Part shown: positions 31,822 to 53,139 of the stretch, piece after piece
How the letters are laid out: every line of letters begins with the position of its first letter
Numbering within the stretch: position 1 is the first letter of the stretch
Source: an uncultured Saprospiraceae bacterium
GTDB taxonomy: Bacteria; Bacteroidota; Bacteroidia; Chitinophagales; Saprospiraceae
Assembly (NCBI GenBank): GCA_937926205.1
Contig: CALEYL010000031.1
Location: 34,121-98,120 of the forward strand
Direction of reading: 5' to 3'
Length of the DNA: 64,000 nt
Made by a program: the position numbers and the translations under genes
The notes under the pieces: generated by a model
Told to the model about the DNA's origin: nothing
Database searches by the model: none
What the model saw: only the letters and a program-made list of their open reading frames with translations

Positions 31822-32031
31822 GAAATCCCTTTTCGAAAACTTGGGTTTGCTGTTGATTTCGGGTAATTTGCGTGCCTGATTGAATCCTTTGCAAAAAACG
31901 GTCCGAAAAATGCAACAAGACTTTACAAAGGATATGACTAAGGCAGTCGAAGAACGCTTACACAATGCCTGATTTCTATACATTTTATTACCTTGCAGCT
32001 CCATTTTCCGAAATTAGTTTTAGCCACAACC

Positions 32032-33573
32032 ATGGACAGCCAATTAGAATTACTCCAGCATAAAATAGCCGAGGCCCATTTGGGCGGAGGCAAGGCGCGC
32101 ATTGCTTCCCAACACGAAAAAGGAAAGCTGACAGCACGGGAACGCATCCATTTTTTATTGGACGAAGGTTCTTTTGAAGAAATCGGTATGCTGGTAACCC
32201 ACCGGAGCAGTGATTTCGGCATGGAAAAGCAACAGGTTCCCGGAGATGGCGTCGTGACCGGCTATGGCACCGTGCATGGCCGTATGGTTTATGTGTTTGC
32301 TCAGGATTTTACCGTTTTCGGGGGTTCTCTTTCAGAAACCCACGCCGAAAAAATTTGTAAAATCATGGACCTCGCCATGCGCAACGGCGCTCCGGTCATC
32401 GGACTAAACGACTCCGGCGGCGCGCGCATCCAGGAAGGTGTAAATTCACTGGGGGGATATGCGGATATTTTTTATCGCAACGTGCAGGCATCCGGCGTTG
32501 TGCCTCAAATTTCAGCCATTATGGGCCCTTGTGCCGGCGGCGCCGTATATTCTCCGGCCATGACCGATTTTACGATCATGGTGGAACAGTCGTCCTACAT
32601 GTTTGTCACCGGTCCCAACGTTGTAAAAACCGTCACCAATGAAGAGGTCAGTTCAGAAGAACTCGGTGGCGCGCACACCCACGCCACCAAATCCGGCGTC
32701 ACGCATTTTACTGCCGACAACGACCTCGACTGCATCAATAAAGTGAAACAGCTGCTCTCTTACCTGCCTCAAAATTGTGAAGGAACGGCGCCCATGCTGC
32801 CATTCGAGCCGGGTGATGAATACCGGGAGCAGCTCCGCTACCTCATCCCGGAAAATGCCAACCAACCCTACGACATGCGCGAGGTGATTGAAGGCATTGT
32901 GGATGAAAGCTCTTTTTTTGAAGTCCACAGTGACTTTGCGGAAAACATCGTGGTCGGATTTGCACGCTTAGGCGGTCGAAGCATTGGCATCGTAGGCAAC
33001 CAGCCCATGAGTCTGGCCGGCGTGCTCGACGTGAACAGTTCCCGCAAAGGCGCGCGCTTTGTGCGTTTCTGCGATTGCTTCAACATTCCGTTGCTGGTTT
33101 TGGTGGATGTGCCCGGTTTTCTGCCCGGTACCGACCAGGAATGGAGCGGCATCATCACCAACGGAGCCAAGCTGCTTTATGCATTCAGCGAAGCCACGGT
33201 GCCCCGCGTTACACTCATTACCCGCAAGGCCTATGGCGGCGCTTATGATGTGATGAATTCCAAACACATCGGCGCGGACATGAATTATGCCTGGCCAACG
33301 GCCCAAATTGCCGTTATGGGGGCAAAAGGAGCTTCAGAAATTATTTTCAAAAAAGAAATCCAGGAAGCGCCCGATCCGGCTGCCATGCTGGTGGAAAAGG
33401 AAAAGGAATATCAGGAGAAGTTTGCCCACCCCTATCGGGCCGCCCAGCGTGGTTTTATCGACGAGGTCATTGATCCCATTGACACCCGCCGCAAGCTGAT
33501 CAAATCTTTTTCCATGCTGGAGAACAAAGTGGCGCACCGGCCAAGGAAGAAGCATGGGAATATACCGTTGTGA
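32032..33573 (+). CDS. acyl-CoA carboxylase carboxyltransferase (beta) subunit / methylmalonyl-CoA decarboxylase alpha-like
   Basis: Start at [20 protein letters not shown]. Conserved blocks [49 protein letters not shown] and [11 protein letters not shown]. Confidence 0.9.
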
Positions 33574-33683
33574 TTAATTTGAAGATGTGAGTATTTGAAA
33601 ATTTGATAATTGGGCAGGGGAATTGCCTAAAAAAGCTTGCTCAATGATTATCAATATAGCATAGTGCTCCCATCTTCAAATTA
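33574..33683. repeat. left flank of the four-helix-bundle cassette: 8-nt-periodic array plus internal 16-nt inverted repeat
   Basis: tgaagatg tgagtatt tgaaaatt tgataatt gggcaggg gaattgcc. aatttgaagatgtgag pairs with ctcccatcttcaaatt about 75 nt away. Confidence 0.6.
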
Positions 33684-34043
33684 TCAAATCACTAATCCTC
33701 TTTTCGTCGTCCCAATGATTTTGGAAAGAATTTTAACAATGGCATCTATATCGGCTAAAAGCGCTTCGGAAGAAGGGTAGTTTTTTGAATGGTTACAAAG
33801 CAACAACCAGTATAGTGTTTCATCTGCTTCTTTGGATGCAATCTTCAGTTTGTGGATAAAATCAGCTTTACTTTCTGCATTCTGAGCTTCATGCACAAGA
33901 GCACCAATGGCTGTACCGCTTCTGAATAGCTGATTGGCCATGTTGAATTTCCTGAGTAGTTCAAGGCCTTCAGTGAATTCAATAACTTTCAAAGCAAACT
34001 CAAACGTCAAGTTTACAATCAAATTGGGTTTGTCGTTTCTCAT
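33684..34043 (-). CDS. four-helix-bundle protein (23S rRNA intervening-sequence protein family, TIGR02436-type)
   Basis: 119 aa. ANQLFRSGTAIGALVHEAQNAESKADFIHKLKIASKEADETLYWLLL is a characteristic signature of this family. Confidence 0.85.
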   Translation of the reverse strand: MRNDKPNLIVNLTFEFALKVIEFTEGLELLRKFNMANQLFRSGTAIGALVHEAQNAESKADFIHKLKIASKEADETLYWLLLCNHSKNYPSSEALLADIDAIVKILSKIIGTTKRGLVI

Positions 34044-34133
34044 GATGGATAAGTTTGGGATGAAATATTTTGTGTTTTATTTACAATAATAAAACAATTA
34101 ATTATCAACCGCAATATCTCCATCATAAAATCA

Positions 34134-34221
34134 CCGTTGCCGAAAAAGTATTTTGATTAATACTAATTTTCGGGCATCCAGAATCCCAATCTCCAAATTT
34201 TCAAATTGCCAAATTTTCAAA
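34134..34221. repeat. right flank of the cassette: about 65-nt dispersed element (inverted relative to copies at 52.3-52.5 kb) plus 8-nt-periodic array
   Basis: ccgttgccgaaaaagtattttgattaatactaattttcgggcatccagaatcccaatctccaaa, then ccaaattt tcaaattg ccaaattt tcaaatc. Its reverse complement matches 52475-52537 at roughly 56 of 64 positions by hand alignment. Confidence 0.7.
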
Positions 34222-34791
34222 TCAACTTTTCCACTTAATATTACACCCCGCGCTCGGATACTGCACTTCGCTAACAGGCAGTCCTTCCAACACCGCATCG
34301 ATTGCCGCACGCAGGTCTGCGCCGGTTAATGGATGGGTATTTTTAGGCCGTGAATCGTCGATTCTGCCCCGGTAAACCAGGCGCATCTGGCTGTCAAAAA
34401 CATAGAAGTCGGGCGTGCAGGCGGCATCGTAAGCCCGGGCAACTTCCTGAGATTCGTCGTACAAATACGGAAATGTATAACCAACCGCTCTGGCGTGAGG
34501 GCCCATTTTTTCAGGCGCATCATCCGGATAATTTTCCACATCGTTTGAACTGATGCCGATAAAACTGACGCCTTTTGCCTGATAATCGCGGGCCAGCCGC
34601 ACGATTTCGGGATTTACGTGGATCACATAAGGGCAGTGGTTGCAAAGAAACATCACGACGGTCGCCTTGTCAGAACGCAAATCAGACAAGCGCATCACCT
34701 TTCCCGAAACGGTATCGGGCAATTCAAATTCAGGCGCTGTTGTGCCCAGCGGAAGCATGTTGGATTCGGTATAAGCCATATTATCGTTCAA
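34222..34791 (-). CDS. thioredoxin-fold protein (redoxin/AhpC-TSA-like)
   Basis: VVMFLCNHCPYV with a CxxC-type site (CNHC) in a thioredoxin-like context. 189 aa. Confidence 0.8.
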   Translation of the reverse strand: MNDNMAYTESNMLPLGTTAPEFELPDTVSGKVMRLSDLRSDKATVVMFLCNHCPYVIHVNPEIVRLARDYQAKGVSFIGISSNDVENYPDDAPEKMGPHARAVGYTFPYLYDESQEVARAYDAACTPDFYVFDSQMRLVYRGRIDDSRPKNTHPLTGADLRAAIDAVLEGLPVSEVQYPSAGCNIKWKS

Positions 34792-52300: not shown

Positions 52301-52677
52301 AACGATTAAAATTTGATGATTTGAAAATTTTAAAATTTGGTGATTGGGATTCGGGATGCCCGGAAAGTTGTGTTCATCAAAGTACTTTTCTGGCATTATT
52401 GATTTGATGATTTGAAAATTTGATGATTTGAAAATTTGAAAATTTGATGATTTGAAAATTTGATGATTTGATGATTTGGTGATTGGGATTCGGGATGCCC
52501 GGAAATTCGTATTTATCAAAATGCTTTTACGGCATTGGAAACTTGAAAATTTGAGAATTGGGATTCGATATGCCCCCTGTTTCCGGAATGCCTCATTTTC
52601 AAATCATCAAATCAACTCATCTTCAAATTAATCCCCTCATTTTCAAATTTTCTAATAAACACATCTTCAAATTAACA
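52301..52677. repeat. gene-less repeat locus: two good copies and one degenerate copy of the 65-nt element, each preceded by 8-nt-periodic arrays, then an oppositely oriented array
   Basis: Copies at about 52335-52397 and 52475-52537 (tttggtgattgggattcgggatgcccggaaa...ggcatt). Degenerate copy at about 52541-52595. Arrays are gatgattt/gaaaattt. Inverted words attttcaaatcatcaaatc and catcttcaaatta lie at 52596-52677. Confidence 0.8.
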
Positions 52678-53139
52678 TCAATCCCCCTTCTCCAAAATCC
52701 GCACGCCCCGATTCAACCCCTCTGACACTTTCATCAAAGCATTTCGGGTAATTTGCAGGGCTTCTTCTTTCGTTTTGGGCTCGTATTTTGACCAGTCAAT
52801 GGTTGCCACCGGAGCTTCCGGAGCAGGGCTTATTTCCCGATACACCAAAGTACCAGCGATCAGGGCCAACGCAAAAATGGCTGCAGCGGCCGCAACCCGA
52901 ATGGGATTCAGGCGGAAACGACGCGCCTGTGGCACAGATAATTCAGCATCAAGGCGCCGCTCAAAACCAGCAGGCAGGGAACGCGACTTTTCAGCATCCA
53001 GAAAGCGAAACAAAGGGATGTATTTTTCCAGTTCTTTTTCCACTACTTCCTGCGAGTTGAAGTAAGCTTTCAGACGTTTTTCTTCTTCCAGCGTCGTTGT
53101 TCCGGCAAAGTATTTTTCGATCAGCGTTTTATAATCCAT
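52678..53139 (-). CDS. putative single-pass anti-sigma factor
   Basis: Start at MDYKTLIEKYF, overlapping the sigma gene stop by 11 nt. One TM (IRVAAAAAIFALALIAGTLVY). The call rests on position immediately after the ECF sigma gene. No zf-HC2 motif seen. Confidence 0.5.
   Translation of the reverse strand: MDYKTLIEKYFAGTTTLEEEKRLKAYFNSQEVVEKELEKYIPLFRFLDAEKSRSLPAGFERRLDAELSVPQARRFRLNPIRVAAAAAIFALALIAGTLVYREISPAPEAPVATIDWSKYEPKTKEEALQITRNALMKVSEGLNRGVRILEKGD

Follow-up and report, generated by a model that had tools for sequence, protein, structure and literature searches.

We analysed a stretch of DNA of 64,000 nucleotides (the window, G000:C31:34121-98120) from the genome of an uncultured Saprospiraceae bacterium, here called G000, the assembly of which comprises 6.85 Mb in 82 contigs at 48% GC (contig positions given without a genome label refer to this assembly). 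Within the window, a gene encoding a four-helix-bundle protein of 119 aa was found to be the sole open reading frame (ORF) in the gap between two convergent genes, which encode a carboxyltransferase and an AhpC/thioredoxin-like protein. The sequence-only reading which we followed up had placed this gene between two unrelated genes and this was borne out, as the gap of 648 nt is taken up exactly, from stop codon to stop codon, by the gene and its flanking repeats, together called the cassette. The protein matches PF05635 (23S_rRNA_IVP, E 6.3e-19) and TIGR02436 (four helix bundle protein, E 6e-24), and its nearest solved structure is PDB 2RLD (E 1.6e-19). Our preferred reading, which we hold with evenly balanced confidence, is that the locus is an armed four-helix-bundle cassette with a design like that of the intervening sequences (IVSs) of rRNA but situated outside rRNA, in which a PF05635 gene and its mirror-image arrays are inherited, lost and replaced together and in which the arms probably pair in the transcript.

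The imperfect inverted flanks which had been noticed in the sequence were confirmed as two arms of 41 nt at 78% identity, the best-matching 19 nt of which reach 89% (inverted repeat I1). Both arms are runs of the octamer RATTTGAW with the inward ends ATTGGG. The left arm begins at the first base past the carboxyltransferase stop codon, and the stop codon of the AhpC/thioredoxin-like gene falls within the outermost unit of the right arm (Table 1). A local hairpin is also present downstream of the gene, made up of inverted repeats I5 (33575-33591 with 33667-33683; 17 nt, 94%) and I3 (33593-33613 with 33669-33689; 81%). A fall of the flank similarity to background on masking of the low-complexity arrays had been named as something that would speak against a mobile cassette, and the inverted similarity does lie almost wholly within the repeat arrays.

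The right flank carries a 54-nt core, which is the central part of what had been described as a dispersed 65-nt element with two further copies at 52.3-52.5 kb. Those two copies are present in a gene-less locus, together with a degenerate third (mean column identity among core copies in the alignment 85% over ~110 nt), but the core is not dispersed: its three copies all lie within the window, no further copy was found in the 6.85-Mb assembly with 5 mismatches per 25 nt allowed, and none was found in 30 relatives. The dispersed component is the octamer array, as 156 (RATTTGAW)n arrays were found in the genome vs 5 in shuffled sequence. We also considered the core as a structured RNA, which was rejected because shuffled sequence folds into hairpins of nearly similar stability (z -1 to -2; -1.2 for 34138-34191) and an Rfam search of 33300-34500 matched no family. 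We read the core as a probable spacer or loop module joined to an octamer array, and the unit of array plus core as having probably been copied locally between the 5' arm of the cassette and the gene-less locus.

Between orthologues the dN/dS was 0.02-0.07, with dS saturated (~0.07 for this gene vs its orthologue in the congener G002), and the protein is therefore functional and under purifying selection. Domain and profile searches found no nuclease or recombinase domain in the 119-aa protein, PF05635 and TIGR02436 being the only matches, and PADLOC gave no defence-system match. Nucleic-acid binding is the likeliest activity, because the protein is homologous to Avd, the four-helix-bundle protein of diversity-generating retroelements (DGRs). 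The AT-rich leader may carry the gene's own promoter; scans for sigma-70-type promoters and intrinsic terminators gave nothing above chance.

Table 1 Features of the cassette, its neighbouring genes and the related gene-less locus, in positions of the window.
Feature	Position	Strand	Basis or description
Carboxyltransferase gene (Carboxyl_trans)	31993..33573	+	PF01039 E 1e-207; stop codon TGA 33571-33573
Left arm (3' arm in the gene's sense)	33574..33614	.	octamer units TTAATTTG AAGATGTG AGTATTTG AAAATTTG ATAATTGGG; I1
Loop (~52 nt) of the local hairpin downstream of the gene	33615..33666	.	between the arms of I3 and I5
Inner inverted octamer array, overlapping the stop and last codons of the four-helix-bundle gene	33667..33690	.	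I3, I5
Four-helix-bundle gene, 23S_rRNA_IVP/TIGR02436 family	33684..34043	-	PF05635 and TIGR02436 matches; 2RLD
AT-rich leader, 94 nt, core to start codon	34044..34137	-	sequence reading
54-nt core, central part of the 65-nt element	34138..34191	-	GATTGGGATTCTGGATGCCCGAAAATTAGTATTAATCAAAATACTTTTTCGGCA; 3 genome copies
Right arm (5' arm in the gene's sense)	34185..34225	.	reverse complement TTGATTTG AAAATTTG GCAATTTG AAAATTTG GAGATTGGG; I1
AhpC/TSA-Redoxin (AhpC/thioredoxin-like) gene	34222..34791	-	stop codon 34222-34224
Gene-less related locus	52301..52690	.	octamer array followed by core 52342-52395; array of 80 nt (52401-52480) followed by core 52481-52534; short array followed by degenerate core 52556-52577; octamer arrays in inverted orientation at ~52590-52680

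Paralogues and repeat arrays in the same genome

A Pfam profile search identified nine PF05635 paralogues in the genome, of which just two were recovered by tblastn with the 119-aa protein, and the nearest paralogue is only 37% identical in protein. On reading their flanks we found that eight of the nine sit between inverted arrays of a 7-8-nt unit. The armed paralogues have seven distinct arm units, GGTAGAG, GGTGGAC, GTTTATKT, GTTGTTC (common to two of them), GTGTGGG, RATTTGAW and an ATCATCA-like unit. The proposal that the flanks are copies of one dispersed repeat thus did not hold, since the unit changes from paralogue to paralogue; the others are not literally bounded by the same repeats, though they are armed with units of their own.

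For an inverted-repeat scan we aligned the 250 nt upstream of each of 5,124 crude gene calls to the reverse complement of the 250 nt downstream. Seven of the eight testable paralogues were within the top 23 genes (top 0.45%) for flanking inverted repeats, the 119-aa gene itself ranking 23rd with a score of 37 (median 18; 99th percentile 29). The armed paralogue on contig C12 lies too close to the contig end for scoring and its arms were seen by eye. It should also be noted that at this locus (L008, C12:1-560) the first ~55 nt of the cassette, comprising the leader and the 5' end of the ORF, are duplicated ~165 nt upstream.

The only unarmed paralogue (C72:355754-356056) adjoins a reverse-transcriptase gene. 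The surrounding locus (L009, C72:355554-357390) is a complete DGR, with, in this order, a 130-nt variable repeat (VR) ending a target gene, the Avd gene, a template repeat (TR) and the reverse-transcriptase gene, and 22 of the 26 mismatches between VR and TR are at template adenines. This copy is a true DGR Avd and serves as an unarmed control within the same genome. No reverse transcriptase, template repeat or variable repeat was found near the 119-aa gene, and all five RVT_1 matches are on contigs other than C31.

A further paralogue has a different kind of setting. Its GTGTGGG-armed cassette (L006, C4:91991-95305) is found between tRNA-Val(gac) and tRNA-Pro(ggg) (tRNAs 1303-1379 and 1896-1971), and because the cassette and both tRNAs are on one strand it lies within a stable-RNA transcription unit, which makes it the nearest analogue here of an rRNA IVS. 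A MITE-like (miniature inverted-repeat transposable element-like) sequence of ~147 nt, described below, also adjoins this cassette.

Short tandem arrays are abundant between the genes of this genome. We counted 346 intergenic arrays of period 7 and 97 of period 8, compared with under 30 apiece for periods 5, 6, 9 and 10; they form ~80 unit families and 93 inverted pairs, and many of the loci are gene-less and complex. Examples are found at C36:123675-124330, C51:50389-50877, C41:89119-89496 and C77:3937-4511, each of which consists of tandem units of a heptamer array plus a 50-90-nt spacer followed by inverted arrays. The commonest unit is GGCAGTT (58 arrays) and there are 52 arrays of AACCTTT, and no gene in the genome has arms of either. 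A RAYT-like gene (similar to the IS200-type tyrosine transposases; C7:28926-29591), flanked by inverted palindromes AAGACTTCCGAAGTCTCGAAGACTTCGGAAGTCTG which resemble repetitive extragenic palindromic (REP) sequences, was also present. With so many arrays, some of which also bracket ordinary genes, it could be supposed that the 119-aa gene merely happens to lie between two; the ranking of its family in the scan argues against this, and the order-wide results given below bear on it further.

Of 23 cassettes, 21 lead with their G-rich arm, and arrays directly after stop codons have a G-rich sense strand in 179 cases vs 30. We considered whether the polarity of the arms is tied to the direction of the gene and rejected this, as a G-first palindrome reads alike on both strands; the count for the cassettes therefore says only that they are G-first hairpins, like the gene-less ones of this genome.

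Filled, empty and exchanged sites among relatives

We compared cassette sites between congeners (G001 to G004) and G000, for which a species tree built from 3,788 nt of flanking genes was ((G001,G002),G003), with G004 and G000 outside. G002 has an orthologous cassette at the same site, with a protein which is 81% identical and arms which are also RATTTGAW, in a different architecture, one side consisting of five units of array plus 27-nt loop and the opposite side of a complete hairpin. In G003 the orthologous site is without a cassette and holds only the unrelated MITE-like element of ~147 nt between the two stop codons. The adjacency of the carboxyltransferase and AhpC-like genes is lost in G001, and the flanking genes are not neighbours outside the genus. 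One gain plus one loss is the same number of events as two separate gains, but a single gain with later loss in G003 is favoured at this site, because the protein clade, arm type, orientation and exact position are common to both filled genomes. The MITE-like element has at least 42 near-full-length copies in G000 and the ends TTAGTGTCTGTC...GACAGACACTAA; copies include L013 (G003:C6:94383-94530), G000:C52:53834-53980 and G000:C11:270022-270168, among others.

Other sites have changed in content between the congeners as well. A site which we call site C is filled in G000 and G001, has a solo GTTGTTC array in G003 and a different array in G002, and in G004 has a gene-less GTTGTTY hairpin, with a gene of the same clade elsewhere in that genome (C728). 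At the fadB-like/thiolase junction, the sister species G001 and G002 (93% nucleotide identity) bear different cassettes, with GGTAGAR arms in one and TTAGAYN arms in the other; their proteins are 43% identical, compared with 87-89% for true orthologues. Each of the swapped cassettes takes up precisely the interval between the stop codon of the gene upstream and the start codon of the gene downstream. A second GGTAGAR cassette was found in G003, at a site where G000, G001 and G002 have only solo arrays of other units. At another locus (L046, G003:C111:9745-10330), five tandem unrelated units of ~90 nt occupy the place where G000 has its GTTTATKT cassette, and G004 has a terminator hairpin only.

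In a tree of the genus, protein clades and arm units go together, and members of one clade are found at different sites. It follows that the gene moves together with its arms as a single cassette, which can be lost, relocated or replaced. This upholds part of the suggestion that the locus is a mobile or recombination-prone cassette, as it is a discrete unit which is present in some congeners and absent from others, and an empty site of the kind which had been looked for does exist in G003. The signs of transposition did not appear: no target-site duplication was seen when the filled sites of G000 and G002 were compared with the G003 site, nor at the swapped junction, although the resolution of both comparisons is limited by the repetitive arms, and neither a transposase nor a near-identical second copy of the cassette was found.

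We therefore regard as improbable the possibility that the cassette is a MITE-like non-autonomous transposon, with terminal repeats which are copies of a dispersed element acted on by a transposase from elsewhere. Its inverted ends are real, a cassette occupies the site in some congeners while others have an empty site, and the genome holds true MITE-like and REP/RAYT elements. In addition to the lack of a target-site duplication, however, the 54-nt core is restricted to its three local copies, the ends are not common to the paralogues, the identity of only 37% to the nearest paralogue means that there was no recent transposition burst, and related cassettes keep the same operon junction across an order. 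Because many of them do so, movement is rare.

This last observation comes from a comparison across the order. Homologues of the 119-aa protein (55-66% identity, 29 loci from many families) nearly all have octamer arms of the form RAT+N5, such as AATTTGAA, GATGTGCC, AATTAGCA, GATTCGGT and AATTGACA. The best arm period was 8 in 19 of the 22 armed loci of this clade, and all 20 armed loci among the homologues of another paralogue (L001) have heptamer arms (Fisher p ~1e-9, for relatives which are not independent). Cassettes of both periods are present in five or more genomes, this one among them, and because both kinds co-occur within single genomes the arm period is a property of the protein clade and not of the host genome.

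The junctions shared across the order belong to operons of central metabolism and include sdhA/sdhB, hmgA/hppD (homogentisate dioxygenase/4-HPPD), a CoA-transferase context and 3-hydroxyacyl-CoA dehydrogenase/thiolase (fadB-like/thiolase), the identity of the last resting on the representative L091; L061, L065, L066 and L091, with their groups, are examples of such junction groups. One flank-context group contains 20 of the 29 control-clade loci. The flanking genes are co-directional with the four-helix-bundle gene in those representatives which gave a clear result, and none of 20 sampled relatives lies in an rRNA or tRNA gene.

At four junctions the arms were found to pair better within a locus than across loci (31.8 vs 20.7, 36.3 vs 25.4, 42.7 vs 26.6 and 45.9 vs 24.8), and a locus's own arm was the best partner in 19 of 41 loci, with ~4 expected by chance. 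The two arms thus co-vary, which could be due to selection for complementarity, to homogenisation of the arms or to replacement of whole cassettes. Shuffling the order of the units favoured true mirror copies in 61 of 64 loci, a count which is subject to selection bias, because the boundaries of the arms had been set from the real alignment. Arms are thus specific to the gene family and, in their period, to the protein clade. Together with the flank ranking, the clade-bound period and the within-locus pairing of the arms mean that coincidence is effectively refuted.

Pairing of the arms in RNA or recognition on DNA

How the arms act is a separate question. Under our preferred reading, which here follows the analogy of the rRNA elements, the cassette would share a transcript with the AhpC/thioredoxin-like gene, located upstream in the same orientation, and both arms would pair in the RNA to form a long stem around the ORF. 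The stem could be a substrate for RNase III, a gene for which is present in the genome (C52:102560-102925), or a hairpin which protects the 3' end, and in this way the insert would be separated from the messages of the host, which would bear little cost. In the predicted minimum-free-energy fold of the sense transcript, ~40 arm-arm base pairs enclose the ORF. Across the order, mismatches between the arms lean towards those which would be G.U pairs in the sense strand (94 vs 42 mismatches; 26 vs 8 loci). RNAduplex on whole 300-nt flanks paired nearly everything and was uninformative.

A number of observations weigh against this. The count of base pairs enclosing the ORF was also high (60) for the unarmed DGR control, so that this measure is not specific. 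Within the genus there was no sense-strand G.U bias (37 vs 40) and most of the arm mismatches are transversions, while the order-wide asymmetry reflects the fact that the 5' arm is richer in G overall (131 vs 48). The background GC skew at four-fold degenerate sites is +0.11, in the same direction and milder, and mutation bias could contribute to the asymmetry because the G excess of the 5' arm parallels this skew. The arms of the cassette in the window are merely 78% complementary, and the left arm can alternatively pair with the inner array at the stop codon. Finally, as to a mechanism of movement, neither an enzyme nor a target-site duplication was found. As the indirect tests based on G.U pairs were mixed, we put the RNA-stem mechanism at about an even chance.

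The main rival is a model in which the protein and the repeats form a cognate system at the level of DNA, similar to that of REP and RAYT: the protein would recognise repeats which match it in period and unit, or assist in copying them, arrays without a gene would be the offspring or targets of this activity, and the arms would be binding sites and not an RNA stem. We consider this a serious possibility but a rather unlikely one. It would account for the fact that the arm period follows the protein clade even inside one genome, although joint descent of gene and arms, with the period kept by slippage, would explain this without recognition. Most of the octamer arrays in G000 contain the ATTTG word of the cassette arms, and for most of the large array families at least one species of the genus has a gene lying between such arrays. 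GGCAGTT brackets L031 (reversed, with the C-rich arm first), TTAGAYN brackets L023, and GGTGGAC, GGTAGAG, GTTGTTC and GATGATT each bracket a gene as well. The 58 GGCAGTT and 52 AACCTTT arrays of G000, however, have no gene with such arms in the same genome. Copying of the module of array plus core from the 5' arm to 52.3 kb would also fit the model, as would the retention, at versions of site C without the gene, of solo arrays or hairpins built of the same unit. Against it is the protein itself, which is without a nuclease or recombinase domain.

A wider version of this idea, which we offer as doubtful, is that protein clades and short tandem repeats are matched pairs in general. Each clade would maintain, recognise or help to copy repeats with a period (7 or 8 nt) and unit particular to it, the "autonomous" form of a self-propagating element would be the cassette, the hundreds of gene-less heptamer and octamer arrays in bacterial genomes which resemble the short tandemly repeated repetitive (STRR) sequences would be its offspring, and the 23S rRNA IVS would be one landing place among others. 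STRR sequences were reportedly described from cyanobacteria by Mazel et al. in 1990.

Comparison with known systems

The 119-aa protein and Avd are homologous small four-helix-bundle proteins, but the cassette is not a DGR component, as there is no reverse transcriptase or TR/VR pair near it, and the real Avd of this genome is the one paralogue without repeat arms. In contrast to a MITE, the cassette shares no terminal repeats with its paralogues and shows no target-site duplication. It is similar to the system of REPs or REPINs (paired, inverted REPs) and RAYTs in that a gene has inverted copies of a repeat on its two sides and the repeat is also scattered without the gene. However, RAYTs are HUH tyrosine transposases and REPs fixed palindromes, whereas the protein here lacks a catalytic motif and the repeats are tandem arrays which differ from copy to copy.

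The arms themselves are of the class of intergenic heptamer and octamer arrays known from other bacteria, with a period of 7-8 nt, three or more copies, an intergenic and often convergent paired arrangement, the G-rich arm first and hundreds of arrays per genome. The published accounts describe GGGAATC arrays in Xanthomonas and GGGGAYT arrays in Nostoc (PMC4692102) and paired octanucleotide sites in Geobacter metallireducens (PMC2700814), all without a gene between them, and propose that they are G-quadruplexes or binding sites for regulators. The G-rich sense strand of arrays after stop codons in G000 matches what is reported for Xanthomonas (PMC4692102). The searched passages of these two papers make no mention of PF05635, and our literature searches returned no description of PF05635 genes between such arrays outside 23S rRNA.

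This locus and its relatives tie the rRNA IVS family to short-repeat arrays at ordinary gene junctions. To our knowledge, rRNA IVSs and their "S23p" ORF have been without an explanation since the early 1990s, and the same is true of the heptamer arrays of cyanobacteria and Xanthomonas. What is added here is the use of a DGR Avd as an internal unarmed control, the association of period with clade within single genomes and the correction of the supposed dispersed element to a local module. For annotation, "hypothetical four helix bundle proteins" can be taken to mark inserted cassettes in operons such as sdhAB, fadB-thiolase and hmgA-hppD. The question can now be tested in ordinary bacteria, by asking whether the protein binds its own arms, whether RNase III cuts the stem and what effect the gene has on the arrays.

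Among known systems, the cassette appears to work most like the 23S rRNA IVSs of Coxiella burnetii (S23p) and Leptospira (PMC4990558). In both, a PF05635 ORF lies between terminal inverted repeats which form, or here are predicted to form, a long stem, and short tandem repeats are present in the termini. A selfish or mobile nature has been proposed for each, while an enzyme is known for neither. The IVS of Coxiella has a 28-bp terminal stem with tandem heptamers (GACAGAT x3), compared with a period of 8 here, and RNase III cuts it in vitro at the first repeat (PMC4990558), whereas the stem of our cassette is predicted from sequence. The Coxiella ORF is reported to be decaying (PMC4990558), in contrast to the purifying selection on the protein found here. 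The cassette lies between protein-coding genes and not in helix 25 or 45, the location by which an IVS is defined, and is thus best described as an IVS-like element which is probably based on the same pairing of its ends.

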